NCBI GenBank assembly: GCA_049288525.1
Contig: JBAQHW010000144.1
Span: 776 to 64,775 of the forward strand
Reading direction: 5' to 3'
DNA: 64,000 bases
From: Xanthobacteraceae bacterium
GTDB lineage: Bacteria; Pseudomonadota; Alphaproteobacteria; Rhizobiales; Xanthobacteraceae
Shown: piece by piece, positions 9,599-51,433 of the stretch
How the letters are laid out: the number at the start of each line of letters is the position of its first letter
Numbering within the stretch: position 1 is the stretch's first letter
Translations under genes and position numbers: made by a program
The notes under the pieces: model-generated
Database searches by the model: none
Seen by the model: only the letters and a program-made list of their open reading frames with translations
Told to the model about the DNA's origin: nothing

Positions 9599-9636
9599 GA
9601 CCGCCGCGGCGGCTGGCGCGCGGCGAAAGCGGTACG

Positions 9637-27569: not shown

Positions 27570-27785
27570 CGTACGAAAACCGAGGGGCGCTATTCCGGCG
27601 GCGAAATGCCGAAGACCGGCGGTGCCCCTCGTCCTGGCGTCATTGACCAGGGCGGCGCGGCCGGCCCGTGCCTGCAAACCAGGATAACAGGATCGTGCGG
27701 TTGGCCGGACCGCCGAATTAGAACAATATTTACCATACCGGAGGACGATCCCGGCCAGTCTAATTGGACAAGCCGGGATTTCCGC

Positions 27786-28958
27786 ATGCAGACATTCGTG
27801 CCCGCTGCCGCCGTCGAAAAGACCATCGTTCTGGGCGATCCTGTCCCCTGGTTCGGCGCTCCGCTCGTCGGCGATGGCGCCTTCAATCTCCAAGTCGCAG
27901 CCGGCCGCTGGATCGTGCTGAGCTTTCTCGGCTCGCCCGAAAATCCGCAGGTCGAGAGCGAGCTGACGCAGCTCCTCGCCGATACGCAAATCTTCGACGA
28001 GGACAAGGTCATATTCTGCGGCCTCTTTACCGCGCCGCCCGCCGATACGGCACCCTATATCGCGATGAGCGGCCCGGCGATTTCGTTTCTCGCCGATTAT
28101 GACGGCGCCATCAGCCGTCAGTTCGGCGCGGCGGCGATGCCGCGCACGATTGTGCTGGACCCGATGCTGCGCGCGGTCGCCGACATTGCGTGGGATCACG
28201 CCGACGGCCATGGCGCGACCGTAGGCGCGGTTTTGCAGGGCCTGCCCGCCGTCGATGATTCCGCCGGCGTGCCGCTCATGGCGCCGGCGCTGATCGTGCC
28301 GCGGGTCTTCGACTTCGAACTCTGCGACTTTCTCATCAATATCTATGACAAGCTTGGCGGCAAGGATTCGGGCTTCCTGTTCGACAATAACGGCGCCACA
28401 TCCACCGTGATCGACTACCGGGTCAAGCGGCGCAATGACCTGAGCATCCTGGTGCCTGAGGTGCGCGACCAGATCCGCGATCAGATCGTGCGCCGTCTCG
28501 TTCCGGCAATCGACCGGTTCTTTCAATTTTCGTCGACGCGGATGGATCGCTATATCGTCGCCTGCTACGACAGCGCCATCGGCGGGCATTTCTATCGCCA
28601 CCGCGACAACGTCAATATCGGCGCGCAGCATCGGCGCTTCGCCGTCACCGTCAATCTCAACAAGGACTATGACGGCTGCGATCTCGTGTTTCCCGAATTC
28701 GGCCGCCGCACCTATCGCGCGCCGGCGGGCGGCGCGATCGTATTCTCCTGCGGGGCGCTGCATCAGGTGACGCCGGTGACGCGCGGCACACGCTATGCCT
28801 TCCTCGCTTTTCTTTACGGCGAGGCTGATGCGGCGTTGCGTGAGAAAAACGACACAAAAATCGTGCAAAATGAATTCCGCTATGCCGGCACCAATTTTGG
28901 TTCCATGTCGGACCGACTGTTTCCGCAAGCCCCGATGCTCGAACAGCGCGCTGGCTAG
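27786..28958 (+). CDS. Fusion protein: Cys-less redoxin/AhpC-TSA-like N-terminal domain plus 2OG-Fe(II) oxygenase (prolyl-4-hydroxylase/PiuC-like) C-terminal domain
   Basis: The N-terminal ~170 aa have a redoxin-like pattern (WIVLSFLGSPENPQ...IVLDP) but no active-site Cys. The C-terminal part has the H-x-D...H facial triad context (FYRHRDN ... GGAIVFSCGALHQVTPVTRGTRYAF). Start set at ATG 27786. Confidence 0.7.
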   Translation: MQTFVPAAAVEKTIVLGDPVPWFGAPLVGDGAFNLQVAAGRWIVLSFLGSPENPQVESELTQLLADTQIFDEDKVIFCGLFTAPPADTAPYIAMSGPAISFLADYDGAISRQFGAAAMPRTIVLDPMLRAVADIAWDHADGHGATVGAVLQGLPAVDDSAGVPLMAPALIVPRVFDFELCDFLINIYDKLGGKDSGFLFDNNGATSTVIDYRVKRRNDLSILVPEVRDQIRDQIVRRLVPAIDRFFQFSSTRMDRYIVACYDSAIGGHFYRHRDNVNIGAQHRRFAVTVNLNKDYDGCDLVFPEFGRRTYRAPAGGAIVFSCGALHQVTPVTRGTRYAFLAFLYGEADAALREKNDTKIVQNEFRYAGTNFGSMSDRLFPQAPMLEQRAG

Positions 28959-29519
28959 CCTCGTCCGAAGCTCCTCAGAGCCATGGCTTCCTGGCCCGTC
29001 CACTAATATTCCTTGGCGACCAGAAGCGTTCAACTGGGACGCCCGGCGCGGTTCAGCGTGTAAATTTCGACGGCAAGACCGTATTTTGGTCCGCTCGTGC
29101 TCAACCGTTCACGCTCGAACTCCACGCATCATAGGTCCATCGGAACCGCTTCAGCCCCGGATTGGATTAATCGAGCAGCAATTCGAAAGCGCGACAGAAC
29201 GACGGGTCGGCAAAGCTTTTCATGATCGAAGCGTCCGTCAACTGAGAGTTTCCGTGCGGCCGATTCCCACACCGAACCCGCCTCAAACCTTGACAGAAAG
29301 CCGAGGTTGCCTCTATTCATACTGCAAGTGCTGAATTCGTTCAGCAAGGCGATGGAGTTCGCCTAAATTGCCCACAGGGCTGATGACTCCTTTCACCCTC
29401 GTTTGAAGGCGGAAGGAATTGTCGTTGAAATTTCCGATAGCGCTATCAAGCTGGACTGGCGCTGGTATGATTCTGCGCACTTGCCGCGGAAATCTTGCCT
29501 ATGTGCGGAGGTTCGCTTG

Positions 29520-30464
29520 ATGTTTCACGACATCATTTTGCAAATCTGCCAAGTGCTCGCCGTCTTGATGCTCTCGCCGCTGTTGCAAGGCGTCATCCTG
29601 CAGTTCGAGGAGCGAGTGCAGTTCGCGCAGGGCCCGGGCATTTTTCAGCCGTATCGCGACCTGTGGAAACTATTTCACAAGCAGATCGTGGTGCCGCAGA
29701 CCGCCTCCTGGATTTATTGGATCGCACCGTTCGTCGCCTTCACTGCGATGCTGACGGTGCCGATCCTGATCCCGGTCTTGACCGATTTTCCGCTGCCGCT
29801 GTCCGACATGGGCGACATTCTCGGCGGCGGACTGATCCTCACCCTCGGATCGTTCATGGTGGTGCTCGCCGGTCTCGACACCGGCAGCGCCTATGGCGGC
29901 ATCGGCTCAAGCCGCGCCGTGATGGTGGCGATTCTCGCCGAGCCGACGCTGATCCTGGTCTTTGTCGGCATTACGCTGCTGGCCAAGTCGATGTTACCGT
30001 TCGTTGTCAATCATCTCCTGGTCGGCAGTCCGGCGGTCTATTTTAGTCCCGCGCACCTCTTCCTGATCCTGGCCTTCTTCACCTTGCTCATCGTCGAGAC
30101 CGATCGGCTGCCGATCCATTCCAGCACGCACATCGAAGTCTACATGATCGAGGAAGGACGCATCCTCGAATATTCCGGCCCGTTGCTCGCCATCCTGCGC
30201 TGGGCCTCAATGATGAAGCAGTTCATCCTCTATACGATCTTTTGCAACGTGCTGCTCATTCCCTGGGGCCTGTCGCATCAAGGCAGCGCTGTCGGCGTCG
30301 TCGGCTCGATCGCTTCGCTGGCCGGCAAATTCCTCGTGGTCGCGATGGCTGTTGTCGTGGTCGAAACCGCGCAGTCGCGCCTGCGCTTCTATCGCTATCA
30401 GGAACTGCTGGCAGCATCTTTCGTCTTCGCCATTCTCGCCATTATCGGCACGCAATTGGTGTGA
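29520..30464 (+). CDS. HycD/HyfC/NuoH-like membrane subunit of a hydrogenase-like complex
   Basis: Aligns by eye with E. coli HycD along its length (QGPGIFQPYRDLWKLF; GLDTGSAYGGIGSSR; ETDRLP...EEGRILEYSG; SRLRF). Start set at ATG 29520. Confidence 0.85.
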   Translation: MFHDIILQICQVLAVLMLSPLLQGVILQFEERVQFAQGPGIFQPYRDLWKLFHKQIVVPQTASWIYWIAPFVAFTAMLTVPILIPVLTDFPLPLSDMGDILGGGLILTLGSFMVVLAGLDTGSAYGGIGSSRAVMVAILAEPTLILVFVGITLLAKSMLPFVVNHLLVGSPAVYFSPAHLFLILAFFTLLIVETDRLPIHSSTHIEVYMIEEGRILEYSGPLLAILRWASMMKQFILYTIFCNVLLIPWGLSHQGSAVGVVGSIASLAGKFLVVAMAVVVVETAQSRLRFYRYQELLAASFVFAILAIIGTQLV

Positions 30465-30466
30465 TC

Positions 30467-31147
30467 ATGCCGGTCGCGCAGTTCGATCCCCTCGCCGCCT
30501 CACTGTTCAGCTTCCTGGCGATTGCTAGCCTGCTGCTGGCCTTCGTCATGCTCGGCTCACGCTGGCTCAATAATTACCTCTACGCCTTTGCCGCGGAGTC
30601 GTGGATCATCGCAATGCTTTCCGCCATGATCGGATATTACGGCGGCTTCCCGGAGCTCTATCTGATCGCCGTGCTGACGGCTTTGTTCCGTGGTCTGCTG
30701 CTGCCGTATCTAATCTGGCGGATCATCAAACGTCTCGGCGTTGCCCGCGAAATCCATGAAATTCTCGAACCGAGCTCGACGCTGGTCGCCGGCGCTGCCA
30801 GCGTCATCTTTGCGCTGATCGTGTCCTATCACATCGGTCAATCCCTCGGCGTCACCGGCAATGTGGTCGTGCTGGCGCTGACCGTCATGCTGGCGATGAA
30901 GTTGATCGGCTTCCTGATGCTGGCCGCGCGGCATGAGGCGCTGAGCCAGATTCTCGGGCTCCTTGTCCTGGAGAACGGCATCTTTCTCGGCGCCCAGCTT
31001 CTGGTACCCGGCATGCCGACGCTGATCGAGATCGTCATCCTGTTCGATCTGCTGGTCGTCGTCGCCTGCTTCGGCGTTCTCGTCCGCTACCTGCTTGCTC
31101 ATGTCGGCAGCACGAGCAGCCTCGATCTCAACCGGCTGGTAGGCTGA
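30467..31147 (+). CDS. HyfE-like small membrane subunit
   Basis: 226 aa, about 7 TM. Its size and position match HyfE/HycP of Hyf-type operons. ATG 30467 is 2 nt after the upstream stop. Confidence 0.7.
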   Translation: MPVAQFDPLAASLFSFLAIASLLLAFVMLGSRWLNNYLYAFAAESWIIAMLSAMIGYYGGFPELYLIAVLTALFRGLLLPYLIWRIIKRLGVAREIHEILEPSSTLVAGAASVIFALIVSYHIGQSLGVTGNVVVLALTVMLAMKLIGFLMLAARHEALSQILGLLVLENGIFLGAQLLVPGMPTLIEIVILFDLLVVVACFGVLVRYLLAHVGSTSSLDLNRLVG

Positions 31148-31149
31148 CG

Positions 31150-32613
31150 ATGGCGGCCGCACTCCTTCTTATCGCGATGCTGGCGCCGGCAGTGACGGTC
31201 GCACTCTGTCTCGCCGTCCGCGCACCGCGGTTCGTCGAGGCCGCCAATCTGTGCTCCAGCATCGTGGTATTCGCCGCCGCGATCGCGCTCACGGTTTTCA
31301 GCGCGCGCGGACCTTATTTTTACCTCGGCGACTACGTCGTTCTCGACGTCACCGGCGCGTGGGTCATCCTCTGCACGGCCATCGTCTATCTGCTGGCTTC
31401 GATATATTCGATTGGTTACATGCGGCTGGTCGGCGAAGAGGACCGGCTGTGGCTGTTCTACGCGCTGTTTTCCGGCTTCACGTTCACCATCTTGCTGAGC
31501 GCAGTGATGAACAATGCCGGCCTGTATTGGATCGCCATCGAGCTGACGACGCTGGTCAGCACGTTTCTGGTCGGCTTCGAGCGGGCCGCAGAGAGCATCG
31601 AGGCGGCCTGGAAATACATCATTATCATTTCCGCCGGCATCAGTCTGGCGCTGCTCGGCACCATTCTGTTTTATTGGTGCGGCAGTTTCGTGCTTGGGCC
31701 GACCTATCAGATGACATGGGATGTGCTGCGCGCGGCCGCGCCAAAGATGAATCCTGCCTTGGCGGCCCTGTCGTTTCTTCTGATCCTGGTCGGCTACGGC
31801 ACCAAGGTCGGTTTGGCGCCGATGCACACCTGGCTGCCTGATGCCCATAGCGAGAGCCCGGCGCCGATTTCGGCAATGTTGTCCGGTGCGCTGCTCAACA
31901 GCGCCATGCTCGGCATCGCGCGCTATCTGCCGATCGCGGAAGCGGCGCAGAGCGAGCGCATCGCCCGCGCGAGCCTCGTTGCTTTCGGCATCGTCTCGCT
32001 CCTTGTCGGCGCGCTGTTCATCGTCCGGCAGAGCGGCATCAAGCGGCTGATGGCCTATTCCAGCGTCGAGCATATGGGCGTCGTGGCGCTCGGCTTCGGT
32101 TTCGGCGGACCGCTCGGCATCGCCGGCGCGCTCTACCACATGCTCAATCACTCGCTGAACAAATCGCTGATGTTCTTCGGCGCCGGCAACGTGATGCGCA
32201 GCTATGGATCGAAGGAGATTCGTGACATTCGCGACGTCTGGCGACGCTTTCCGGTCGCCGGCGCATTATGGCTTGCCGGCGCGGTCGGCATTACCGGCGC
32301 GCCGCCGTTTGCGTTGTTTCTCAGCGAACTCGTTATCCTGCGGGCCGGCTTCGAACGCGGCTACGCTTGGGCGGTGTATGCGATGGCCGTGCTGCTGATC
32401 GTGATTTTCATCGGCTTCCTCAATCACTTTCGCAATATGTATTTCGAAGCCGATGGAGCGGCCGATGCTGCGCCGCTGGCAATCAGCCGCTGGTGCGTCG
32501 CGCCGATGTGGCTCGCACTCGGGCCGCTTCTCGTCTTCGGCCTGTGGTGGCCGGACGCGCTGTGGGATCACTTTATGACCGCAGCGCGCACGCTGACGGG
32601 GGCCTCGCCGTGA
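31150..32613 (+). CDS. HyfF / NuoM-NuoN-like antiporter-type membrane subunit
   Basis: 487 aa with proton-conducting membrane transporter motifs (GLAPMHTWLPDAHSESPAPISAMLSG; YSSVEHMG). Confidence 0.85.
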   Translation: MAAALLLIAMLAPAVTVALCLAVRAPRFVEAANLCSSIVVFAAAIALTVFSARGPYFYLGDYVVLDVTGAWVILCTAIVYLLASIYSIGYMRLVGEEDRLWLFYALFSGFTFTILLSAVMNNAGLYWIAIELTTLVSTFLVGFERAAESIEAAWKYIIIISAGISLALLGTILFYWCGSFVLGPTYQMTWDVLRAAAPKMNPALAALSFLLILVGYGTKVGLAPMHTWLPDAHSESPAPISAMLSGALLNSAMLGIARYLPIAEAAQSERIARASLVAFGIVSLLVGALFIVRQSGIKRLMAYSSVEHMGVVALGFGFGGPLGIAGALYHMLNHSLNKSLMFFGAGNVMRSYGSKEIRDIRDVWRRFPVAGALWLAGAVGITGAPPFALFLSELVILRAGFERGYAWAVYAMAVLLIVIFIGFLNHFRNMYFEADGAADAAPLAISRWCVAPMWLALGPLLVFGLWWPDALWDHFMTAARTLTGASP

Positions 32614-34100
32614 ACGCCTTGCAGCCCCTCGCGCTGCGGCCGGGCGAACTGAAGGACGCCGCAACGCGCCTTCTTGCCTCCGGCGGCCGCATGCAAATGG
32701 CCTATGCCTGGTATCCGGAGCCGGATCGTATCGAGCTTCGCTATACCGCAAGCCCGGCCGATAACGCGCCATTTGCAATCTGGCGCTGCCAAGCCGACGA
32801 GCCGGTGCCGAGCCTTGCCGGGATTTCCCCTCTCTTGAGTTGGTACGAACGCGAAGTGACCGATCTGTTCGGCCTGCACTTCACCGATCACCCGCAACCT
32901 TTGCCGCTGGTTCTGCATGAAGGGGTGGACCGGAGCGTCCCGCCTTTCGCCCCGGATTATCCACCGGATCGGGCGCTTAAGCTGCAGACGACGCGGCGCT
33001 CGGTGCCCGAGCTTGCCGGCGCCGATGGGGACGTGCAGCTTTTGCCGTTCGGTCCGGTCCGCGCCGACGTCATGGAGTCCGGCGAGTTTCTGTTCTTTTA
33101 TGTCGGTGAAGCGATCCTGCATTATCAACCGCGGCTGTTCTTCAAGCATCGCGGCATGGAGAAGCGCTTCGAGGGCTTATTGCCCGAACGCGGCGTCGTG
33201 CTAGCCGAACGTGTGTCGGGCGTCGGCAGCGTCGCCCACGCGCTCGCTTACTGCCAAGCCATGGAAGCGGCCGCCGGTTGCGACGTTCCCGAGCGCGCCC
33301 GCGTGCTGCGGCTCGTCCTCGCCGAGATCGAGCGGCTTTATAACCATCTGCATTATTTCGGCCATCTCTGCAGCACGACGACGCTCAAAGTCGGCGAAGC
33401 GGAAGGCAAACTGCTCGAAGAGCAAGCCAAGCAGCTTAATACGCGGCTTACCGGCAGCCGCTTTCTGCGAAGTCTGCTTGCCATCGGCGGACTGCGGCGC
33501 GACCTTGCGCCAGAGGATTGGCTTGACGAGGCGCTCGACGGCTTGCATGCGCACTTTGCCCGCTATGCGCGGCACATGGAGAACACGGCAAGCCATCTCG
33601 ATCGCCTGATCACGACCGGACTGCTCGATCGCCGTCTGGCGTTCGATCAGGGCGCGACCGGGCCGGTCGAGCGCGCTTCGGGCGTCGACCGCGATTTGCG
33701 GCGCGATCATCCTTATGCGGCCTATGCCGCTTTGCCGCCAAAGATCGCGGTGCGCGAAGCCGGCGACGCCCATGCCCGCGCGCAAGTGCGCATGGCGGAA
33801 GTCGAAGCCAGTATCGCGCTCATCAGGCGCGCACTGCAAGCGCTGCCCGATGGGCCGATCCGCGGCAAATGCACGATCACGCCGAATAGCGAAGGCCTCG
33901 GCTGGGCGGAATCGCCGCGGGGCACCTTGTTCTATGCGGTGCATATCGGCGGCGACGGTAAGCTCGCCCGCGTCAAGATCAAATCGCCGTCGTTTTCCAA
34001 TTGGCGGGTGTTTCCATTCACCGTGCATGACAGCAACATGATGGATTACGCGATCAACGAGGCCAGTTTCGGCCTCACCATCGCGGGATGCGATCGTTAG
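32610..34100 (+). CDS. NuoC+NuoD / HycE-like large subunit lacking the NiFe cysteine ligands
   Basis: The GTG 32610 start overlaps the upstream stop (GTGA). N-terminal NuoC-like domain (LSWYEREVTDLFGL). The NuoD/HycE-like domain (FGPVRADVMESGEF...HRGMEKRFE) reads ERVSGVGSVAH where hydrogenases have RxCGxCxxxH. Its C-terminus is GLTIAGCDR where hydrogenases have DPCxxCxxR. Confidence 0.85.
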   Translation: MNALQPLALRPGELKDAATRLLASGGRMQMAYAWYPEPDRIELRYTASPADNAPFAIWRCQADEPVPSLAGISPLLSWYEREVTDLFGLHFTDHPQPLPLVLHEGVDRSVPPFAPDYPPDRALKLQTTRRSVPELAGADGDVQLLPFGPVRADVMESGEFLFFYVGEAILHYQPRLFFKHRGMEKRFEGLLPERGVVLAERVSGVGSVAHALAYCQAMEAAAGCDVPERARVLRLVLAEIERLYNHLHYFGHLCSTTTLKVGEAEGKLLEEQAKQLNTRLTGSRFLRSLLAIGGLRRDLAPEDWLDEALDGLHAHFARYARHMENTASHLDRLITTGLLDRRLAFDQGATGPVERASGVDRDLRRDHPYAAYAALPPKIAVREAGDAHARAQVRMAEVEASIALIRRALQALPDGPIRGKCTITPNSEGLGWAESPRGTLFYAVHIGGDGKLARVKIKSPSFSNWRVFPFTVHDSNMMDYAINEASFGLTIAGCDR

Positions 34101-34109
34101 GAGCCGCGC

Positions 34110-34913
34110 ATGCCGCAATGGACATTGATCGGCCTCCTCACCGGCAAGCAGACGGCGCCTTGGCCGTTCGCCGAAGGCGACGACGGCCAGCACGGCTTTC
34201 TCGGCATGCCGCGCTACAAGCCGGAACTGTGCAGCGATGAATGCCGCGCCTGCGCCGACATTTGCCCGACCAAGGCGATCGCGCTCAAGGCGAGCGTAAA
34301 CGGCGGCGGCAAGCTCGACGTCGATTATGGCCGCTGCGTCGTCTGCCAGCTTTGCACCGAAGCCTGTCCGACTGGCGCAATGAGCCCTTCGGCGGATTGG
34401 GCTTTTGGCGTGCGCGCACGCTCCGATCTCGTCTGGAGCGAAAACGTGAATCCTGCACCCGTCGCAGCCGCCGCGGCGCGGCGGCCGTTCCGGCGCAGCC
34501 TGCATGTCCGCCATGTCGATGCCGGCTCCTGCAACGGTTGCGAATCCGAGCTGCAGGCGCTGAACAATCCGTTTTACAATCTGCATCGCCTCGGCATTTT
34601 CTTCACCGCCTCGCCGCGTTTCGCCGATTTGTTGCTGGTGACTGGACCAGTAACCAACGCGATGGCGGAGCCGCTGCTCGCCACTTACGAAGCAATGGCG
34701 GAACCGCGCTGGGTGGTTGCGGTCGGCACCTGCGCGGTCTCCGGCGGCATCGCCGAAGGCGGTTATGCATCGGGTTATGGCCTCGACGGCGTTCTCCCCG
34801 TCGATGTCTATCTGCCCGGCTGTCCGCCCAATCCGGCGGCAATCATAGAAGCGCTGCTGATGTTTCTCGATCGCGCACCGCAGCGCGTCAAAGGAGGCCG
34901 CCTTGGCGAATGA
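34110..34913 (+). CDS. Fused 2x[4Fe-4S] ferredoxin (HycF/NuoI-like) plus NuoB/HycG-like small subunit
   Basis: The N-terminal part has CSDECRACADICP and CVVCQLCTEACP. The C-terminal part has NuoB motifs (GSCNGCE, LLLVTGPVT, VAVGTCAVSGG, LPGCPPNP). Confidence 0.85.
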   Translation: MPQWTLIGLLTGKQTAPWPFAEGDDGQHGFLGMPRYKPELCSDECRACADICPTKAIALKASVNGGGKLDVDYGRCVVCQLCTEACPTGAMSPSADWAFGVRARSDLVWSENVNPAPVAAAAARRPFRRSLHVRHVDAGSCNGCESELQALNNPFYNLHRLGIFFTASPRFADLLLVTGPVTNAMAEPLLATYEAMAEPRWVVAVGTCAVSGGIAEGGYASGYGLDGVLPVDVYLPGCPPNPAAIIEALLMFLDRAPQRVKGGRLGE

Positions 34914-36888
34914 CCTCCTGACCACCGCGGTGATCGCCTGGCTTGCTGCGGCGCTGATTGCGCTCAGCGGACGCTGTCTTGTGCTGTCTCGCGGGCTTTT
35001 GTTTGTTGGCGCGCTCGTGGCGATTGTTGCAGCGATTCTTGCGTTGCCCGATGGGACGGCCGCGGTCGCGCTACCGACGCGGATCGCCGGCAGCGCCGTT
35101 GCCTTCCGCATCGCGCCGGAAGCGGCTTGGCTCTTCGGCTTCGGTCTCGTTCCAGCGGCGCTCGCGGCCGCGCTGTCGTCGCCTGTGCGGCAGGGGCAAG
35201 CCGGCTGGCTGTTCGGCGCCGCCATGAGCCTTCTCGGCGCGCTCGGCGTATTCGGCGTCAGCGATGGCGCCGGCTTTCTCATCGCCTGGGAAATCATGAG
35301 CTTCGGCGGCGCGATCATGATTTTGAGCGAAAAATTGTCGCCCGCCGGCGAACCGGTCCTGTTCATGCTCGGCCTGCTCGAAGCCGGCGCGATCGCTCTT
35401 TTGCTTGCTGTCGTGGTCCTTGCCGCCGCCGGGCATTCCTTCGCTTTCGCAAACTTTGCCGGCGCGTCTGCACATTTGGCGGCCCCGATTGCATCGTTCG
35501 TCGCCGTGCTGCTGGTGATCGGCTTCGGCGCCAAGCTTGGTCTTTTGCCGTTCTACGAATGGTTTCCGTCGGCTTATGGCGCCGGCAGCGGCGCGTCGGG
35601 CGCGCTGCTTTCGGGCGTCGTTCTCAATGCCGCATTCTATGGCTTGAGCCGCGGGCTGCTTGATTGGGCGCCCGACCAGCACGCGGCCGCGACATCGGCC
35701 ATCGGGATTTTTGTCGTGACTGTCGCGGTGCTGAGCGCGATTCTCACTGCGCTTTATGCTTTCCAGCAGGAGGATTGGCGGTCGCTCCTGAGCTTTTCCT
35801 CGGCGGAAAACGCCGGCATCGCCGTTGCAATGCTCGGTGCCGCCTTGATCTTCCGCGGTCACGCGATGCCCGAACTCGCAAGCCTCGCCTGGACGGTGGC
35901 GCTGCTGCACCTCGCGGCGCATGCGCTGGCGAAGGGCGGCTTGTTTCTCACCGCCGACGCAGTCTATCGCGCGACCGGCAGCTACAGCATCCTGCATACC
36001 GATCTGTTGCGCCGCAGCTCCTGGCTGTTCGGGCTCGGTGCGCTGTTTGCCGCGATGAGCCTTGCCGCCATGCCGCCGCAAGCCGGCTTCGTCAGCGAGT
36101 GGTACATGTTCGAAACCGTATTCCAGGGTTTCCGCCTCGATTCGCTGACGAGCCGTCTGGTCATGGCGCTTGCCGGCGCCGGCCTTGCTCTGACTGTCGC
36201 CATTGGCTTTGCGACTTACGTCAAGGTCTTCGGCATCGGGCTCCTCGGCCGCACCGCGCAAAAATTCCCGCCGGCGCGCCCCGACTATGGCTTAGCGATC
36301 GGCCTGCTTGGCCTCGGCGTCCTCGCCCTTGCCGTCGGCATGCCGTGGTGGCTCGACGCGCTGCGGAACGCGGTGTCGGCACAGTTCGGTACGCAGGCCA
36401 TAAGCGCCATGCGCGACGGACCGATCCTGGTTCCGCTGACCGCGAAATTCGCCTTCATCTCACCGACGCTTCTGGTCGTGGTCATGCCGCTGTTGGCGAT
36501 CCTGCCGATCGCGCTGGTCCTCGCCAACCGACGCTTTGCCGTACGTCGCGTGCCGGTCTGGTACGGCGGCTTTGATCAGGATCCGGCGCGCGCTTCAACC
36601 ACGGCGCTCACCTTCTCCAACGCGCTGCGCACCTTCTACAGCTTCATCTACCGGCCGACCCTGGAAACCACGCGGGATTCCGGCGCAGCCCCGCATTATT
36701 TCGTCAAGCGGCTCGTGTTCTCGCACGATGTGGCACCGGTGTTCGGACCCTATCTGTTCGCGCCGCTGACGCGCGCGACCTATGCGCTGGCCGACCGCTT
36801 CAAGGCGCTGCAATCGGGCAACCTGAACTTGTACCTGGCCCTGATAGGCCTGATGCTGGTCGCCATCCTCGCTCTGACCTTGTATTGA
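34903..36888 (+). CDS. HyfB / NuoL-like antiporter-type membrane subunit
   Basis: 661 aa polytopic protein of HyfB size. TTG start at 34903 with AAGGAGG 5 nt upstream. It overlaps the upstream gene by 11 nt. Confidence 0.8.
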   Translation: MANDLLTTAVIAWLAAALIALSGRCLVLSRGLLFVGALVAIVAAILALPDGTAAVALPTRIAGSAVAFRIAPEAAWLFGFGLVPAALAAALSSPVRQGQAGWLFGAAMSLLGALGVFGVSDGAGFLIAWEIMSFGGAIMILSEKLSPAGEPVLFMLGLLEAGAIALLLAVVVLAAAGHSFAFANFAGASAHLAAPIASFVAVLLVIGFGAKLGLLPFYEWFPSAYGAGSGASGALLSGVVLNAAFYGLSRGLLDWAPDQHAAATSAIGIFVVTVAVLSAILTALYAFQQEDWRSLLSFSSAENAGIAVAMLGAALIFRGHAMPELASLAWTVALLHLAAHALAKGGLFLTADAVYRATGSYSILHTDLLRRSSWLFGLGALFAAMSLAAMPPQAGFVSEWYMFETVFQGFRLDSLTSRLVMALAGAGLALTVAIGFATYVKVFGIGLLGRTAQKFPPARPDYGLAIGLLGLGVLALAVGMPWWLDALRNAVSAQFGTQAISAMRDGPILVPLTAKFAFISPTLLVVVMPLLAILPIALVLANRRFAVRRVPVWYGGFDQDPARASTTALTFSNALRTFYSFIYRPTLETTRDSGAAPHYFVKRLVFSHDVAPVFGPYLFAPLTRATYALADRFKALQSGNLNLYLALIGLMLVAILALTLY

Positions 36889-37028: not shown

Positions 37029-37427
37029 ATGGGAATGTATCTTTTGGTCGGGCTCGGCGGCGCTATCGGCTCGATTGGACGCTATTTCATGTCCGGAGTG
37101 ATGGCGCGGCTGATCGGCGAAACGTTCCCGTGGGGTACGCTCTTCGTCAATGTCACCGGCTCGTTCATTATTGGATTTTTCGCGGCACTGACCGGACCGG
37201 ACGGGCGCTTCTATGTCGGTTCGAGCGGACGCCAATTCGTCATGACCGGCATATGCGGCGGCTATACGACGTTTTCCTCGTTCAGCCTGCAAACGCTCAA
37301 TCTCATGAATGATGGAGAGTGGTTTCGAGCCGGCGCGAATATGGGCATCTCTCTGGCACTCTGCCTGCTCGCGGTCTGGGCTGGATTCATCGCAGCGAAT
37401 ATGATCAACACCATCAAATGGACGTGA
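37029..37427 (+). CDS. crcB: Fluoride channel CrcB/FluC
   Basis: 132 aa, 4 TM, with the family motifs GGAIGSIGRY and CGGYTTFSSF. Confidence 0.9.
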   Translation: MGMYLLVGLGGAIGSIGRYFMSGVMARLIGETFPWGTLFVNVTGSFIIGFFAALTGPDGRFYVGSSGRQFVMTGICGGYTTFSSFSLQTLNLMNDGEWFRAGANMGISLALCLLAVWAGFIAANMINTIKWT

Positions 37428-37429
37428 GC

Positions 37430-37768
37430 ATGCAGTTGCCGCGCGACGCCGTCTTGCTGCGGATATTTTTTGGCGAAGACGACAAATTCGAGCGTCTGCC
37501 GCTGCACGAGGCTATCGTGTTGAAGGCGCGCGAAATGCACCTTGCCGGAGCGACGGTGTTGCGCGGCCACGTTGGCTACGGCCATTCCAGCCGCATCCAC
37601 ACCACGAAAATCCTGCGCCTTTCCCAAGACCTGCCCGTGGTCGTCGAGATTGTCGATAGCCAGGACAAGATCGACGCCTTCCTGCCTGTGCTCGACGGCA
37701 TGATGACGAGCGGGCTGGTCACCATCGAAAGGGTTCAGGTGCTTCAATACGGCACCACAAAGCCGTAA
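37430..37768 (+). CDS. DUF190 (PII-like) protein commonly linked to crcB
   Basis: LLRIFFGEDDKFERLPLHEAIVLKAREMHLAGATVLRGHVGYG is the DUF190 pattern. The ATG is 2 nt after the crcB stop. Confidence 0.75.
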   Translation: MQLPRDAVLLRIFFGEDDKFERLPLHEAIVLKAREMHLAGATVLRGHVGYGHSSRIHTTKILRLSQDLPVVVEIVDSQDKIDAFLPVLDGMMTSGLVTIERVQVLQYGTTKP

Positions 37769-39793: not shown

Positions 39794-40831
39794 TTAAGGC
39801 CGCGGCTGCGACGGCGTAAGGCGATAATGGCTCACGCCCCATTCCTCGCCGCCGGCGTGACCGAACAATCCCATCGTCGCCAGAAAGAACAGCCGCCAGC
39901 GGCGGCGCCAGAGCGCGCCGTCGCGGCCGTAGACGCGCTTAAGGACCGCATTCACTTCATCGGCATGGTCGTCAAACTTTTTCAGCCAATCTGCGGCCGT
40001 GCGTCGGTAATGCTCGCCGTTCCATCGCCATTCCGCGTCGACGGTGAAGCAATCCGGAAATTGCCGGATCAGTCCGTGGCTCGGCATTATGCCGCCGGTG
40101 AAATAATGCTGCGCGATCCAGTCTTCCTTGTCTTCTGCGCGGAAGCGATACGACGCACGCGCATTGCTGAAGACGTGGATGAACATGCGCCCGTCGGCTT
40201 CGAGACTATCGCGCATCCGGGAAAGCAGCGGTCGCCAGTTCGACATGTGCTCGAACATTTCGACCGACACCACGCGATCGAAGCGGCCACTCGGCATAAA
40301 CACATTCATATCGGCAGTAACGACTTCAAGATTAGTCAGGCCCTGAGCTTCGGCGACGCCCGTGATAAAGGCACGCTGCGAATGCGAATTCGACACCGAC
40401 ACGATCTTGGCGGCGCGATAGCGCCGCGCCATCCACAGCGATAGCGAACCCCAGCCGCAGCCGAGTTCGAGAATGCGCTGACCGTCGGCAAGGCCGGCAT
40501 GCGCGGCACTGACGGCGAGCGCGCGCTCCTCGGCTTCGATCAGCGATTCGATACCGTCATCGTAGAGACAGCACGAATATTTGCGCTGGGGCCCAAGCAC
40601 GAGCGCAAAGAAATTTTCGGGGATCTCATAATGCTGCGTATTAGCTGCATCCGTATTAATCGCGATCGGATAGTCCGCCATCCCCGCGGCGAATATGCCG
40701 TCGACATTTTGCGGCGCGACCCGCAGCCGACGCCGGGTCCGCCCGACGAGCCAATCGATCGCCGGCCGCGTTATCGCGTCGGGCCACGGGACGCCCTCGC
40801 CGATGCCGATCATGGATTGCAGAAGCGTCAT
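39794..40831 (-). CDS. Cyclopropane-fatty-acyl-phospholipid-synthase-like SAM-dependent methyltransferase
   Basis: HYEIPENFFALVLGPQRKYSCCLY and the SAM motif ILELGCGWGSL. The start ATG 40831 overlaps the upstream stop (ATGA). The track ORF start at 41131 was rejected. Confidence 0.88.
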   Translation of the reverse strand: MTLLQSMIGIGEGVPWPDAITRPAIDWLVGRTRRRLRVAPQNVDGIFAAGMADYPIAINTDAANTQHYEIPENFFALVLGPQRKYSCCLYDDGIESLIEAEERALAVSAAHAGLADGQRILELGCGWGSLSLWMARRYRAAKIVSVSNSHSQRAFITGVAEAQGLTNLEVVTADMNVFMPSGRFDRVVSVEMFEHMSNWRPLLSRMRDSLEADGRMFIHVFSNARASYRFRAEDKEDWIAQHYFTGGIMPSHGLIRQFPDCFTVDAEWRWNGEHYRRTAADWLKKFDDHADEVNAVLKRVYGRDGALWRRRWRLFFLATMGLFGHAGGEEWGVSHYRLTPSQPRP

Positions 40832-41670
40832 TTGCGGTCTCCAAACCCGCTCCACCAGGCCAGGCGCTGCGGCACCGGAAAAAATGCATTGGTGCGCGCC
40901 TGATAGGCACGAAACGCGCCGACCCGCCGTTCCAGCATATGCGCTTCGAGCGGCGGGATGCCGGAGACATGCACCAGCAGCCAGTACATGCAGAGCGGCC
41001 CTGCCAGCGCGATAAATCCCCACGGATAGCCGCCACCGAAAGCGATCGCGAACAGCGGATAGGCGAGCCAGCCGAACCATTCGAAGAAGTAATTCGGGTG
41101 CCGCGACCATGACCACAGTCCGGCGTCGCAAATCCGATCGCGGTTCTTTGGGTCGGAGCGAAAGTGCCGCAGCTGGAAATCGGCGGCGGCTTCGCCGCCG
41201 ATGCCGACCATCAGGACGACGACGCCGAGGAAATCTTGTGCACCAAGGCCCGGCGATGGATTAAACGCAGCGAGTGTCATTGCCAGCGCCAGCGGTATGC
41301 TGACCAATGCCTGTTTCTGCAACAGCCAGAACATTTGTCGCGACGCATTGTCCCCCCAGTCGCGAATGAGCTTGGCGTAGCGCGGATCGTCGATAATCCC
41401 GACCGTGCGCAGCGCGATATGAGCGCCAAGCCGCAGCGACCAGATCGCGATCAGCCAAGCCACCAGTGCCTGACGCTCCGTTATGCCGCCGAACAACAGC
41501 CATGGCGTCAACGCACCGCCACAGCCGACAACGCCGAGACCGAAAGTCCAGATCGTATCGACCCATCCGGAGTTTCGCGTGCCGCGCCAAACCAGCCAGG
41601 CTCCGGACATGATTGCCGAAAGCGCCGCGCTGACGGCAACAACGACGACTGCGAATTGTTGCGCCGTCAT
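40828..41670 (-). CDS. DUF1295 (steroid-5-alpha-reductase/ICMT-like) membrane protein
   Basis: The C-terminal motif GLWSWSRHPNYFFEWFGW is characteristic. About 6 TM. Confidence 0.8.
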   Translation of the reverse strand: MTAQQFAVVVVAVSAALSAIMSGAWLVWRGTRNSGWVDTIWTFGLGVVGCGGALTPWLLFGGITERQALVAWLIAIWSLRLGAHIALRTVGIIDDPRYAKLIRDWGDNASRQMFWLLQKQALVSIPLALAMTLAAFNPSPGLGAQDFLGVVVLMVGIGGEAAADFQLRHFRSDPKNRDRICDAGLWSWSRHPNYFFEWFGWLAYPLFAIAFGGGYPWGFIALAGPLCMYWLLVHVSGIPPLEAHMLERRVGAFRAYQARTNAFFPVPQRLAWWSGFGDRK

Positions 41671-42608
41671 GGCGTCACAGCCGCGGGCTGCGCCCGACCG
41701 CGGAGCGTTCCGGCCATGAAGCGGTCGGTATCCCGCAACGCCGGCGCGAGGAAGCGGAGCGGGCCGGCGAACGACCCAATGATGGTGAGGTGGCCGACGC
41801 GCGGATAGGTGGCCACATCGGCTTCGTCACCGGACGCGCGCAGGCGCGCCGCAAGGCGCATGGTATTGCCCGAGCCAACCACGTTGTCGTTCGTGCCCGT
41901 CATCAGGAGTGCCGGCGGCGCTCCGGGCGAGACATAAGAGATCGGCTGCGTCGTTGGCCGATTGGCGCCGCCGAATATCGCCTGCAGCATCGGATCGCGC
42001 AGCGGCAGGAAATCATACGGCCCGGAAACCCCGATCAGCCCGGCGAGATCGCGGTCCGGCACGAGGCCGACCTCCTTGAGCCAGCGGGGGTCGAGCGCAA
42101 GCATCGCCGCGATATAGGCGCCGGCCGAATGCCCCATGACAAAAAGCGCGGCGGAGTTGCCGCCGTAGCGCGCGGCGTTGTCACGAGTCCAGCGCATCGC
42201 GTGCGCGCCGTCCTCAAGAAAAGCGGGATAGCGAACCTCGGGGTAAAGCCGATAGTCCGGGACGACGGTCAGATAACCGCGCTGTGCCAGCGCCGCGCCG
42301 AGAAACGTGTAGAGCGCCTTGTCGCCGGTTTGCCACGAGCCGCCGTAAAAGAACACGACAACCGGCGCATCAGTGGCGCCAGCAGGCCGATAGAGGTCGA
42401 GCGTTCGCCGGGGTCCGTCACCGTAAGCAACCGAGCGCGTAATTTCGACGCCGGACGTGGAAACAAAGAAGTTCAAGACCGAGGCAGGAGAGCAGCCGGC
42501 AAGGAGCAAGCTCGCCAGCACGCCGGCGGCCCACGGCGAGCCATGCCGGCCGCCGCACCGTTTGGCGCTCGACCCGGTACCGGCCCGATACTCGCAAGCG
42601 CGCCCCAT
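41667..42608 (-). CDS. Alpha/beta-hydrolase (esterase/lipase) lipoprotein
   Basis: Lipobox LLLAGCS, oxyanion FFYGGSW and nucleophile elbow GHSAGA. It is a paralog of the gene at 53427..54257. Confidence 0.85.
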   Translation of the reverse strand: MGRACEYRAGTGSSAKRCGGRHGSPWAAGVLASLLLAGCSPASVLNFFVSTSGVEITRSVAYGDGPRRTLDLYRPAGATDAPVVVFFYGGSWQTGDKALYTFLGAALAQRGYLTVVPDYRLYPEVRYPAFLEDGAHAMRWTRDNAARYGGNSAALFVMGHSAGAYIAAMLALDPRWLKEVGLVPDRDLAGLIGVSGPYDFLPLRDPMLQAIFGGANRPTTQPISYVSPGAPPALLMTGTNDNVVGSGNTMRLAARLRASGDEADVATYPRVGHLTIIGSFAGPLRFLAPALRDTDRFMAGTLRGRAQPAAVTP

Positions 42609-42617
42609 CGCGGCCGC

Positions 42618-43262
42618 TCAGAGACGGACGAAAGGCTGTAGCAGCCGGCCGACCCAGCTCTGCAGCTCGATATTGCCCTGCAACGCCACCAGGCAAACGC
42701 AAGGCACGCCATCCTCGACGACCGGATTATGCTCGACCAGTTCGTCGGCCTCGTCGAAATCGCCGGCGCCGAAGCGGCCAAAATCGTGTCGGAAGGCACC
42801 CTCGAAAACGCAGGTCCATTCCGTTCCGCTATGCCGGTGACGCGGCAAACGCGTCCCCGCCGCTGCCTTCAACATGAAAACGCGGACGCCATCGTCCGAG
42901 GCGACGTCGACCGAACGCCACTGCACGTTGCAGCCGATCCAACGCCATGAACCCAATGTGTAGGGCGCCAGAGATGCCGGTAACGCACCGGCCTGTGCGC
43001 GCTGCGGGCGGGCACCTTGGCCGGCTTCCGACACTTGCGCGGACACTCGCGCTATGGCGCGCTCCAGCGCGCCGGTGGACATCTCCGCGGGTACAGCCGT
43101 CTCAAGCTGGACGCCGCCGACATTCTCGAATGACGACATCGCCTCCCGGCAATGCGGGCACAGCGACAGGTGCGCGGCAACCACCACCGCACGCGCCTCA
43201 TCAAGCGTGCCGGAGGCGAGCGCCGCCAATGTCAGATCGCTTGGATGATGCGTGATGGTCAT
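42618..43262 (-). CDS. chrR: ChrR-family anti-sigma-E factor (zinc anti-sigma domain plus cupin)
   Basis: HLSLCPHCR zinc motif, a C-terminal cupin (RHRHSGTEWTCVFEGAFRHDFGRFGAGDF) and a QPFVRL end, closely like the Rhodobacter ChrR pattern. Overlaps the sigma gene stop (ATGA-type, 43259-43262). Confidence 0.9.
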   Translation of the reverse strand: MTITHHPSDLTLAALASGTLDEARAVVVAAHLSLCPHCREAMSSFENVGGVQLETAVPAEMSTGALERAIARVSAQVSEAGQGARPQRAQAGALPASLAPYTLGSWRWIGCNVQWRSVDVASDDGVRVFMLKAAAGTRLPRHRHSGTEWTCVFEGAFRHDFGRFGAGDFDEADELVEHNPVVEDGVPCVCLVALQGNIELQSWVGRLLQPFVRL

Positions 43263-43828
43263 GTCGGCTCACCCAGAAGATTGTGCAAACGGGTCATCGC
43301 CAGACGCAGCCGCGATTTGACTGTACCCAGCGGCAGATCGAGAAGCTTGGCGATATCACCGTGGGCGCGGCCTTCGAAGAAGGAAAGCTGAACCACACGG
43401 ACTTGTTCCTCCGGCAGTTCGCGAAGTGCGTCGCGCAGGCGCTGATCGCGCTCCGCGACGTCGAGCGGAGCGTCGGGCCGCTCGGGCGCCTCGGTTTCGA
43501 TGGCCTCATAAAGCGCAAACAGCTTTGCCCGCTTGTCGCGGCGCAACCGGTCCACCCCCAGATTGCGGGCGATCGTGTAAATCCAGGCGGCTGGGCTGGC
43601 GCGCGCCGAATCGAATTGCCCGGCCTTTCGCCACACCATCAGCATCGTATCCTGCGCGATGTCCTCGGCCGCCTCAGCCGCAGCGCCGCGCCGAACCAGC
43701 ATGGCTTTGATGCGGCCGGCATAACATTCGAACAGCGAGGCGAACGCGTCCCGGTCCCCTTCGGTCGCAATCGCGCTGATCCATCGCGCCGGATCGGAAC
43801 CCGAAGCGCTTTCGCCTTTATCGTCCAT
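43259..43828 (-). CDS. rpoE: ECF sigma factor, sigma-E of the ChrR-linked group
   Basis: Region 2 (AEDIAQDTMLMVWRKAGQFD) and region 4 (EQVRVVQLSFFEGRAHGDIAKLLDLPLGTVKSRL). Start set at ATG 43828 (MDDKGES). The track start at 43996 would swallow the promoter. Confidence 0.9.
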   Translation of the reverse strand: MDDKGESASGSDPARWISAIATEGDRDAFASLFECYAGRIKAMLVRRGAAAEAAEDIAQDTMLMVWRKAGQFDSARASPAAWIYTIARNLGVDRLRRDKRAKLFALYEAIETEAPERPDAPLDVAERDQRLRDALRELPEEQVRVVQLSFFEGRAHGDIAKLLDLPLGTVKSRLRLAMTRLHNLLGEPT

Positions 43829-43942
43829 ACGCGCTCCGTGACGGACGCCATCCTGCCGGAACCAAAGCGGCCCGTGGCCGCCCGGTAACGGCCAGGGCGG
43901 CGTCGGCCATTGCCTCGCTATTTCGAGTTGCATGCCCGGGGA

Positions 43943-43968
43943 TACGACCGACGGCAGCATTTGGATCA
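43943..43968 (-). promoter_or_regulatory. Sigma-E-type autoregulatory promoter (TGATCC-N16-CGTA) for the rpoE-chrR operon
   Basis: On the minus strand, TGATCC is at 43968-43963, followed by a 16-nt spacer and CGTA at 43946-43943, ~115 nt upstream of ATG 43828. Confidence 0.65.
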
Positions 43969-43982
43969 GGCCGGCTGGCCGG

Positions 43983-44008
43983 TGATCCAACCCCAAAAAT
44001 CAATCGTA
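43983..44008 (+). promoter_or_regulatory. Sigma-E-type promoter (TGATCC-N16-CGTA) for the divergent FAD-oxidoreductase operon
   Basis: TGATCC at 43983-43988, a 16-nt spacer, and CGTA at 44005-44008, ~60 nt upstream of ATG 44070. Confidence 0.65.
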
Positions 44009-45425: not shown

Positions 45426-46228
45426 GGCTTCGCGAAACTTTGAATTTCCGCTCTGCGTTATACGTCGGATCGGTGATCCACCGGCGGCTGCGGCCGCATG
45501 TGCACCGCCTGCGCTACCGAGTATTTTGGCTGCTGCTCGACCTTGACGAAATCGATCGCTTGAGCAAAAGCCTGCGGCTGTTTTCGCACAACCGATTCAA
45601 TGCCGTCAGTTTCCATGACGCAGATCATGGCGACGACAGCGGCCGCCCGTTGCGCGACCAGGTCGAGCAGCATCTTATCCAAGCCGGCATCGGCTGGAGC
45701 GGCGGCACGATCCGGCTCCTCTGCATGCCGCGAATTTTCGGTTACGGCTTCAACCCGCTGAGTGTCTACTTCTGCCATCACTGCGATGGCCAGCTCGCGG
45801 CCGTGCTCTACGAGGTCCACAATACATTCGGCGAACGCCACAGCTATTTGATAGCGGCCGGCCCCAACGCCGGGGCGGTGCTAGAACAGCAATGCCGCAA
45901 GGTATTTTACGTCTCGCCATTCATGGACATGGCTCTGACGTATCAGTTCCGTGTCGCCATTCCCGGCGAACGCGTCTCAGTCGCGATCAGGGCAGTTGCG
46001 GCGGATGGCGTGATGCTTGCCGCAGTACTAGCGGGACGCCGACAAGACATTTCGGACTTAAACTTGCTGCGACTGCTTGCCACTCATCCGCTGCTGACTT
46101 TGAAGGTCATTGCCGCGATTCACTGGCACGCGCTGCGGATGCTGCTGAAAGGCTATCGCTCGCGCGCCCGACCGGCTCCTCCGGCGCTGCCCGTCACCAG
46201 CGTGGACCTCGGGGGCCGATCGCCATGA
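45422..46228 (+). CDS. DUF1365 protein
   Basis: YVGSVIHRRLRPHVHRLRYRVFWLLLDLDEID...FHDADHG is the DUF1365 pattern. ATGA overlap with the upstream stop. Confidence 0.8.
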   Translation: MRLRETLNFRSALYVGSVIHRRLRPHVHRLRYRVFWLLLDLDEIDRLSKSLRLFSHNRFNAVSFHDADHGDDSGRPLRDQVEQHLIQAGIGWSGGTIRLLCMPRIFGYGFNPLSVYFCHHCDGQLAAVLYEVHNTFGERHSYLIAAGPNAGAVLEQQCRKVFYVSPFMDMALTYQFRVAIPGERVSVAIRAVAADGVMLAAVLAGRRQDISDLNLLRLLATHPLLTLKVIAAIHWHALRMLLKGYRSRARPAPPALPVTSVDLGGRSP

Positions 46229-51371: not shown

Positions 51372-51433
51372 CGACCACAACCATCGTGGAACCCGCCGCC
51401 AAACGGCGGGTTCCTTCCTGTTGGAGGACGATC

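Follow-up and report, generated by a model that had tools for sequence, protein, structure and literature searches.

An Ehr-type operon, very probably under fluoride riboswitch control, in a Xanthobacteraceae bacterium

The 64,000-nucleotide (64 kb) stretch of Xanthobacteraceae bacterium DNA analysed here, referred to throughout as the window (GenBank assembly GCA_049288525.1, contig JBAQHW010000144.1, positions 776 to 64,775 of the forward strand), carries six consecutive genes, designated g1 to g6, for a membrane complex assembled from subunits of the kind found in group-4 hydrogenases and respiratory complex I. The proposed transcription unit comprises, in this order, a fluoride riboswitch, the six genes, crcB and a DUF190 gene, and the region is very probably a fluoride-riboswitch-controlled operon of the Ehr (energy-converting hydrogenase related) type. 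A preliminary description of this DNA had presented the six genes as a unit of their own, devoid of context, and this view has to be revised: the riboswitch starts the unit at 29339, crcB and the DUF190 gene probably end it at 37768, and the arrangement is conserved throughout the lineage. Because both the riboswitch and the crcB/DUF190 genes are conserved, the physiological context of the operon, fluoride stress, can be read from the window itself. The features of the unit, in window positions, are the following.

29290-29318, + strand: putative sigma-70-like promoter, weak and picked by eye, immediately 5' of the aptamer (TTGACA, about 17 nt, TATTCA)
29339-29399, + strand: fluoride riboswitch aptamer (crcB motif, RF01734); Rfam score 46.6 bits (gathering score 34), E 9.2e-10
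29387-29420, + strand: competing hairpin (expression platform) from leader folding, terminator-like and followed by a U-rich stretch
29520-30464, + strand: g1, NuoH/HycD/HyfC-like membrane subunit, 314 aa, ATG start; PF00146, 1.4e-31
30467-31147, + strand: g2, HyfE-like small membrane subunit, 226 aa; NF008556, 9.1e-14, over residues 13-221
31150-32613, + strand: g3, HyfF (NuoM/N)-like antiporter-like subunit, 487 aa; PF00361 and, as best NCBIfam match, HyfF (3.5e-114)
32610-34100, + strand: g4, NuoC+NuoD/HycE-like large subunit, R-type, 496 aa; PF00329, PF00374 and PF00346
34110-34913, + strand: g5, fusion of a HycF/NuoI-like 2x[4Fe-4S] ferredoxin and a HycG/NuoB-like domain, 267 aa; Fer4 and PF01058
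34903-36888, + strand: g6, HyfB (NuoL)-like antiporter-like subunit, 661 aa; PF00361, NF005086 (HyfB) 2e-88, end to end
37029-37427, + strand: crcB, Fluc fluoride channel; PF02537, 140 nt after g6
37430-37768, + strand: DUF190 gene, the usual companion of crcB; PF02641

The six genes are tightly coupled, with gaps of 2, 2 and 9 nt between g1 and g2, g2 and g3, and g4 and g5, a GTG start for g4 within a GTGA overlap with g3, and a TTG start for g6, behind AAAGGAGG, that overlaps g5 by 11 nt. An independent gene call on a matching Xanthobacteraceae metagenome-assembled genome (MAG) contig (GCA_049583005.1, JBAUVB010000488.1) returned the same six genes, and the gaps are those given in the preliminary description. 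The operon is not unique to this genome, and near-identical copies number in the thousands. A 777-aa open frame lies antisense to g4-g6 on the - strand (33201-35534) and further long antisense frames occur nearby; their composition is that expected for high-GC antisense artefacts.

Pfam and NCBIfam searches, together with alignments, bear out the subunit assignments first made from the reading frames (NuoH/HycD-, HyfE-, HyfF-, NuoC+NuoD/HycE-, HycF+HycG(NuoB)- and HyfB-like). When aligned with HycD, HyfC and NuoH, g1 retains the EYSG motif and the transmembrane glutamates; g2, for which the Pfam search gave no match, is recognized through an NF008556 match that falls below the curated cutoff and shares 24% identity with E. 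coli HyfE. No match to an NCBIfam equivalog (exact-function) model reaches its curated cutoff, the one match above cutoff being that of g5 to a generic model for the NuoB subfamily. This marks the operon as a divergent relative, and not an orthologue, of Hyf, Hyc or Nuo. Mislabelling by annotation pipelines had been anticipated, and close relatives are indeed named "formate hydrogenlyase subunit 5", "Ni,Fe-hydrogenase III large subunit" or "NADH-quinone oxidoreductase subunit C" in public records.

The RF01734 match ahead of g1 is full-length (model positions 1-64), ends 121 nt before the g1 ATG and is the sole Rfam match in the 64 kb. Leader folding gives a strong competing hairpin, the 5' arm of which is the 3' pseudoknot strand of the aptamer (CUCCUUUC). 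This is the usual layout of fluoride ON switches, and it is present in 72 of 76 related leaders, where the arms differ between loci yet stay complementary. The hairpin came from folding, and a consensus terminator scan of the window leader returned nothing convincing; likewise, a consensus promoter scan did not flag the candidate at 29290-29318, the -10 hexamer of which is poor. Downstream, crcB and the DUF190 gene lack an aptamer of their own, there being no second one in the window, and no terminator-like site was found in the scan between g6 and crcB, so that these two genes are probably co-transcribed with the six-gene operon. By aptamer score, strand, conserved position and linkage to fluoride genes, the operon is very probably a member of the fluoride-riboswitch regulon.

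The linkage between aptamer and operon was followed in a scan of one genome per species that yielded 478 stretches encoding relatives, of which 80 loci were kept, mainly from soil Alphaproteobacteria (Xanthobacteraceae, Stellaceae, Methylovirgula, Rhizomicrobium and Mesorhizobium montanum), with one Terriglobia MAG. An aptamer was counted only if supported by a regular-expression match with at most 2 errors or by an Rfam match, since 3 mismatches gave false matches in the window; the regular expression alone missed the aptamer of one locus (L073), which Rfam found. Gene neighbourhoods were established by tblastn anchoring, in place of longest-reading-frame calls that antisense frames had distorted. 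Under these rules, the aptamer precedes the NuoH-like gene in all 76 alphaproteobacterial loci with upstream sequence, the window included, typically at 80-160 nt. Genes for crcB and/or DUF190 directly follow the last operon gene, with no aptamer between, in 37 of 77 loci, and some 40 loci that lack them downstream still carry the aptamer directly 5' of the first gene. Many related loci hold 2-6 aptamers within 21 kb, ahead of MutS-like, DUF190, enolase, crcB and other genes, and the operon flanks vary among related genomes.

The same arrangement of aptamer and operon extends to more distant relatives, at 57% (Burkholderia, Caballeronia), 54%, 47% and 45% identity. At 57% it is carried by the Caballeronia plasmid pSBC1_2, and on the Burkholderia cenocepacia conjugative plasmid NZ_CP073671.1 (L094) it forms part of a mobile "fluoride island" of 19.5 kb with seven RF01734 aptamers, which precede genes for a dynamin-like protein, a hypothetical protein, a HAD protein with an inorganic pyrophosphatase, the Ehr-type operon, crcB, a CLC-family protein and others; a DUF190 gene also lies in the island. 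In three loci (L042, L092 and L094) crcB has its own aptamer and the operon aptamer is still present. Elsewhere, an Alicyclobacillus sp. ALC3 plasmid (NZ_CP066785.1, L100, from acid mine drainage) carries at 6546-8248 a lone R-type large-subunit gene of 498 aa behind its own aptamer, with the motifs LPLGPVRADVSES, ERISGTATASH and SLGLSYAGVDR, in an island with five aptamers, CrcB and two DUF190 genes, where no membrane subunits adjoin the large-subunit gene. No aptamer was detected at the Rhizobium hyqRBCEFGI locus or at Cys-less loci of Cupriavidus, Meiothermus, Rhodococcus and Variovorax. Five contigs among the distant representatives (L085, L093, L102, L104 and L105) were too short for the aptamer test.

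Several of these loci show particular arrangements. In L092 (GCA_027345765.1, 47% identity) the operon end is approached convergently by a crcB-DUF190-crcB unit (12007-13483) that has its own aptamer, a linkage to fluoride export in a different arrangement. One MAG (MFD05512.bin.1.169) holds the operon twice (L024 and L025), and in both cases DUF190 is the next gene downstream. In the B. cenocepacia plasmid record, annotation of the large-subunit gene begins only at residue ~136, although a single tblastn match spans all 496 residues. In 12-14 loci, MutS-like ATPase genes (~530-545 aa) occur in pairs, preceded by fluoride aptamers, a few kb upstream of the operon (for example L003 4963-6594, L008 3273-4862 and L095 ~1590-3160), in accordance with the old "mutS" association of the crcB motif.

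The large subunit g4 finds its best PDB sequence match in E. coli HycE (7z0s_E, E 4e-58). The preliminary description had read its NiFe cysteines as lost, and alignment with HycE and Nqo4, a check that it had proposed, leaves none of the four in register: RVCGICGFAH of HycE corresponds to RVSGVGSVAH in g4 and DPCYSCTDR to GLTIAGCDR, the single C-terminal Cys being off by one position. The C-terminus ends in CDR like that of NuoD, and the maturation extension of ~32 residues of HycE/HyfG is absent. Within the 64 kb, none of the attributes of a functional group-4 [NiFe]-hydrogenase (the CxxC motifs L1 RxCGxCxxxH and L2 DPCxxCxxR/H, the maturation machinery of hypA-F and HycI with a C-terminal extension, a donor module) is present. 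As first described, hyp, hycI, formate dehydrogenase (FDH), carbon monoxide dehydrogenase and NuoEFG genes are absent from the 64 kb, as are fdhF and hycB. The quinone head-group ligands of T. thermophilus Nqo4 are missing as well, with Y87 aligned to G204 and H38 to M155 of g4; among g4 orthologues G204 is invariant and position 155 is variable. Neither Tyr87/His38 nor the tandem-Cys N2 motif, which together mark complex I, is found in g4 and g5.

The pocket left by these losses is strongly conserved. Among 75-85 orthologues at 40-84% identity, from which all conservation counts were taken, R151, D153, E156, E200, R201, S203, H210, T490 and R496 of g4 hardly vary, S207, C494 and D495 recur in 80-82 of 85 sequences, and the motifs LPFGPVRxDVxES, AERVSGVGSxAH and NEASFGLTxAGCDR are near-invariant. 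The beta1-beta2 loop is hydrogenase-like with one added Arg. An AlphaFold2 (AF2) model of g4 from a diverse alignment has a predicted local distance difference test score (pLDDT) of 95.1 and matches the fold of HycE best (template-modelling (TM) score 0.95, root-mean-square deviation 2.2 A) and E. coli NuoCD second (TM 0.90); an earlier model from a shallow alignment (pLDDT 60.9, below 50 in the pocket) was discarded.

The remaining subunits retain their cofactor and channel residues, as the preliminary description had proposed for the two antiporter-like subunits and the Fe-S ligands. The ferredoxin part of g5 has eight Cys in two motifs, the first of which departs from canonical spacing with the unusual CxxxCxxCxxxCP, followed by CxxCxxCxxxCP; the NuoB-like half has the hydrogenase-type CNGC...GTC...GCPP arrangement, as opposed to the CC tandem of complex I. 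Each of the 12 Fe-S Cys is retained by 80 or more of the 83 orthologues. Both g3 and g6 keep the Glu of transmembrane helix 5 (TM5), the TM7 Lys, the His/His/Lys row and the TM12 Glu, and these residues are invariant in 76-78 of 78 orthologues of g3 and in 73-75 of 75 of g6. Conservation of cofactor, channel and pocket residues therefore indicates a complex in use under strong purifying selection, not a decaying hydrogenase.

Complex I and the energy-converting hydrogenases have widespread relatives in the Ehr complexes. These have been defined as group-4 relatives without Ni/Fe ligands and of unknown function (PMC6349859, PMC10284858, PMC4758237), and the operon, with its set of NuoB-, NuoC/D-, NuoH-, NuoI- and NuoL/M/N-type subunits and a large subunit devoid of Ni/Fe ligands, fits the published working definition, in line with the classification first given to it. 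It shares with other Ehr complexes the group-4-hydrogenase/complex-I-like subunit set, the Cys-less large subunit, the antiporter-like subunits and the unknown function, and differs from them in belonging to an apparently separate R-type lineage, in its HycF-HycG fusion and in its fluoride riboswitch. Family typing among representatives of 1.84 billion protein clusters separates Cys-bearing hydrogenase-like relatives, a Cys-less "H-type" that includes Hyq (GPVHAGIIEPGHF, ERISGDSSFAH and SFNLSYAGNDL), a Cys-less "R-type" that includes the window (GPVRxDVxES, ERxSGxxSxAH and SFGLTxAGxDR), and smaller Cys-less groups with Tyr or Phe at the R-type loop position. In a neighbour-joining tree, which is rough, lacks a published Ehr reference set and is indicative only, the window falls in a Cys-less lineage apart from the Hyq/H-type Ehr lineage, and in pairwise identity g4 is about equidistant from HyqG (33%), HycE (32%) and NuoCD (30%).

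Among characterized systems, E. coli FHL-1 (Hyd-3, HycBCDEFG+FdhF, 7Z0S) and Hyf share with it the HycF and HycG parts of g5, with a CxxC-type proximal-cluster motif, and the counterparts of g1, g2, g3 and g6 (HycD/HyfC, HyfE, HyfF and HyfB), but at 24-39% identity; the window operon is without their NiFe Cys and C-terminal extension, and HycB/HyfA, FdhF, HyfD, hyp and hycI are absent from the window. HycC, unlike g6, lacks the TM7 Lys. With complex I (NDH-1, Q and P modules) the operon shares its architecture, a NuoC-NuoD fusion as in E. coli, the NuoD-like ...DR end and the channel residues, whereas NuoEFG, separate NuoA, NuoJ and NuoK subunits and Y87/H38 are missing and CxxC replaces CC. 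The MBH and MBS complexes of Pyrococcus (6CFW, 6U8Y) and the M. tuberculosis Rv0082-Rv0087 operon, which has been called EHR (PMC6728331) and is compared here by description, not by sequence, resemble it as group-4-type, membrane-bound complexes with a ferredoxin link, actual or putative, and MBS exemplifies a relative without hydrogenase chemistry that is able to reduce another substrate. MBH and MBS are nevertheless far more distant from g4 (MbhL 4e-32, MBS 6u8y_L 5e-26) and contain Mrp-type multi-subunit modules.

A parallel in subunit make-up is the Hyq complex of Azorhizobium and rhizobia (hyqRBCEFGI), an alphaproteobacterial system with a six-subunit core (B, C, E, F, G and I) in which Rhizobium HyqG likewise has no NiFe Cys in register and the small subunit has an N2-type CxxC cluster. 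Its subunits are, however, only 30-37% identical to those of the window (52% for the NuoB domain), and Hyq differs in its B-first gene order, its helix-turn-helix (HTH) regulator gene, its NifA/sigma-54 control, its H-type pocket loop and a HyqI without a ferredoxin domain. The window operon has none of these attributes of the Hyq endo-hydrogenase. In Azorhizobium, genetic work has connected the NifA-controlled Hyq with the recycling and the evolution of H2 (PMC2650096, PMC3357923), and its authors call the catalytic site speculative (PMC3357923). The statement in the preliminary description that the role of such complexes is experimentally unknown stands for this lineage, but is too strong for the class as a whole, given these genetic studies.

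An association between the crcB motif and genes of this appearance has been on record since 2010, when the motif was noted in 5' untranslated regions of "formate hydrogen lyase" genes (Weinberg 2010, PMC2864571), and a 2024 review takes the riboswitch-linked genes as true formate hydrogen lyase, marking a shift to formate-based fermentation (PMC11139923, citing Baker 2012). These operons, annotated as hydrogenase-4 or formate hydrogenlyase (FHL) and located directly behind RF01734, are almost certainly the same genes as those described here. The literature reads them as formate-oxidizing, whereas the sampled large subunits, from the window clade, Burkholderia, Caballeronia, three metagenomic clades and Alicyclobacillus, are all without NiFe ligands, and no FDH accompanies them; the sampled cases therefore cannot be formate hydrogenlyases. 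Wherever sampled here, the "formate hydrogen lyase" of the riboswitch regulon is the Cys-less R-type Ehr lineage. A literature search found no paper tying Ehr complexes to fluoride.

A role for the complex in fluoride stress can be outlined on these grounds. Fluoride enters cells as HF at low pH, and HF, as a weak acid, lowers both the proton-motive force and the cytoplasmic pH; export of F- through Fluc depends in turn on membrane potential and proton-motive force, and the homeostasis of fluoride is closely tied to that of pH (PMC11139923). In the model that we put forward, tentatively and as a plausible reading of the sequence, the complex would be an ion pump, induced by fluoride and driven through its Fe-S clusters, that helps to sustain pH, membrane potential and the export of fluoride. 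Rising cytoplasmic fluoride would bind the aptamer, the competing hairpin, which uses the 3' strand of the aptamer, would be blocked, and the operon would be expressed. The membrane arm would be formed by the NuoH-like, HyfE-like and two antiporter-like subunits with their intact ion-channel residues, and in the peripheral arm two [4Fe-4S] clusters of the HycF-like domain and a third, N2-type one in the NuoB-like domain would lead to the remodelled and strongly conserved large-subunit pocket with neither NiFe nor quinone ligands. Electrons from a soluble low-potential carrier of the ferredoxin type would enter at the HycF-like domain, pass to an acceptor and drive the pumping of H+ (or Na+). 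Entry of HF and exit of F- through Fluc would in sum have the effect of an uncoupler; by ejecting the protons brought in, the pump would re-establish the membrane potential on which F- efflux depends. Gene content, loss of the catalytic ligands, retention of Fe-S and channel residues, and the aptamer with its conservation alongside crcB/DUF190 throughout the lineage are observed here, whereas we infer that fluoride induces the operon in this organism, that the complex pumps ions, that a ferredoxin-type donor and an acceptor serve it, and that the cell benefits.

Several observations weigh against this proposal. No donor or acceptor was found among the window genes, the conserved neighbours in ~80 loci or the first genes behind the aptamers of 85 related loci; neither the window nor the last set contains a ferredoxin, a flavodoxin or an oxidoreductase that might act as partner. 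Substrate ligands are not recognizable in the pocket, so that net redox turnover is putative, and aerobic soil hosts should already own respiratory proton pumps, which makes the benefit of an extra one less than obvious. On the regulatory side, the U-tract behind the hairpin is weak and imperfect and the mode of control, by termination or otherwise, is uncertain, and one R-type relative at 40% identity has no aptamer in 279 nt of upstream sequence. Finally, the stand-alone large subunit of Alicyclobacillus may hint at a fluoride-related role that is independent of pumping.

Two other readings have to be weighed seriously, each of them unlikely in our estimate. According to the first, the complex would be a non-redox cation/proton antiporter of the Mrp kind, serving fluoride-induced pH and ion homeostasis in the manner of the Na+/H+ antiporters known from the fluoride regulon, with a peripheral arm and Fe-S clusters that persist as structural or regulatory relics. 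The retention of all channel residues in both antiporter-like subunits and the failure to find a donor, an acceptor or substrate ligands are in keeping with it, and Na+/H+ antiporters are the second commonest class of fluoride-riboswitch genes (PMC11139923). Such a reading is at odds, however, with the conservation of 12 of 12 Fe-S Cys across 40-84% identity and with a near-invariant large-subunit pocket that is hard to square with a relic, and true Mrp systems function without a peripheral arm.

The second, which we likewise consider improbable, sees the complex as an oxidoreductase between ferredoxin (or another donor) and quinone, a minimal analogue of complex I/NDH-1 that would provide an extra or fluoride-tolerant entry point into respiration. 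The subunit set equals the complex I Q and P modules, the fold of g4 matches that of NuoCD (TM 0.90), a quinone site has been proposed for the Cys-less Hyq (PMC3357923), and ferredoxin could bind at the HycF-like domain, in line with proposals for related enzymes (PMC9356269). The quinone pocket itself speaks against it, both canonical head-group ligands being gone (Y87 replaced by the invariant G204 and H38 by the variable M155), and so do the CxxC of the NuoB-like domain, which is of the hydrogenase type and not a tandem CC, and the hydrogenase-like beta1-beta2 loop with its added Arg.

Very unlikely, in our view, is a direct part in fluoride handling, in which the former NiFe pocket of the R-type large subunit would bind or sense F- or HF and the complex would be a primary fluoride (or HF/H+) extruder coupled to redox chemistry or to the proton-motive force. 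The pocket, next to the N2-type cluster, carries the conserved R151, D153, E156, S203, S207, H210, T490 and C494, and both this conservation and the lone Alicyclobacillus R-type subunit behind its own riboswitch are compatible with a fluoride-handling pocket.

That the complex would evolve or consume H2, as a Hyq-like endo-hydrogenase or as a genuine formate hydrogenlyase or hydrogenase-4, is highly improbable. Pipeline labels agree with such an activity, as does the interpretation of the riboswitch association as formate-based fermentation (PMC11139923), and Hyq combines the same six-subunit make-up and a Rhizobium orthologue without NiFe Cys with a genetic link to H2 (PMC2650096, PMC3357923). 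Against this stand the absence from g4 of every NiFe Cys in register and of the HycE-type C-terminal extension, the absence of hyp, hycI, fdhF and hycB from the window, and an identity of only 33% to HyqG, which falls in a different lineage in the rough tree; furthermore, Hyq-type loci have HTH/NifA-type control in place of a riboswitch, HyqI has no ferredoxin domain, and the catalytic site of Hyq itself is speculative (PMC3357923). The idea that the riboswitch serves crcB and DUF190, with the six genes as mere passengers between aptamer and channel gene, draws on the window crcB following the operon without an aptamer of its own and is hardly tenable, since the aptamer stays 5' of the first gene in the ~40 loci that lack downstream crcB/DUF190, is kept where crcB has its own (L042, L092 and L094), and persists with the operon from 84% down to 45% identity across Alpha- and Betaproteobacteria.

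We know of no substrate, phenotype or inducing condition reported for Ehr complexes since their definition in 2013. The fluoride field, for its part, lists "formate hydrogen lyase" among the commonest riboswitch-controlled genes and explains it as a fermentation switch. The present analysis indicates that the Ehr lineage and the riboswitch-linked "formate hydrogen lyase" are the same objects, and the R-type operon is a distinct variant of a known, uncharacterized Ehr kind that travels with fluoride channels, sometimes on conjugative plasmids. On the one hand, the fluoride link makes the long-open question of Ehr function approachable by experiment, as it offers a probable inducing condition and cultured hosts (Burkholderia cenocepacia, Caballeronia and Mesorhizobium montanum). 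On the other hand, it directs fluoride biology and organofluorine bioengineering to a putative, so far unrecognized layer of energy-coupled tolerance to fluoride in bacteria of acid soils.

The rest of the window contains three RND efflux systems, transporters, a TonB receptor, a 2-oxoglutarate (2OG) oxygenase, an SDR protein, an ECF-sigma cluster, a TRAP transporter and an MsrPQ-like pair, among others. Just upstream of the riboswitch, the gene at 27606-28958 encodes a weakly AhpC/TSA-like N-terminus fused to a 2OG-Fe(II) oxygenase domain, a fusion that is not kept beside the operon in relatives. A PF01292 match at 51386-52300 was considered and rejected as a hydrogenase part: it is a cytochrome b561 beside an Oxidored_molyb protein, the two (51386-53060) forming the MsrPQ-like pair, and the Pfam name "Ni_hydr_CYTB" is liable to be misread there as a hydrogenase component. 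Two adjoining RND sets occupy 1697-16076, the first with a membrane fusion protein (MFP), an AcrB-like pump and an outer-membrane factor, the second with an MFP and two AcrB-like pumps. On the - strand, 39794-43996 holds genes for an ECF sigma factor, a cupin (ChrR-like anti-sigma), an esterase, a DUF1295 protein and a cyclopropane-fatty-acid-synthase (CMAS)-like protein, opposite which an amine oxidase gene and a second CMAS-like gene are found at 44070-47451.

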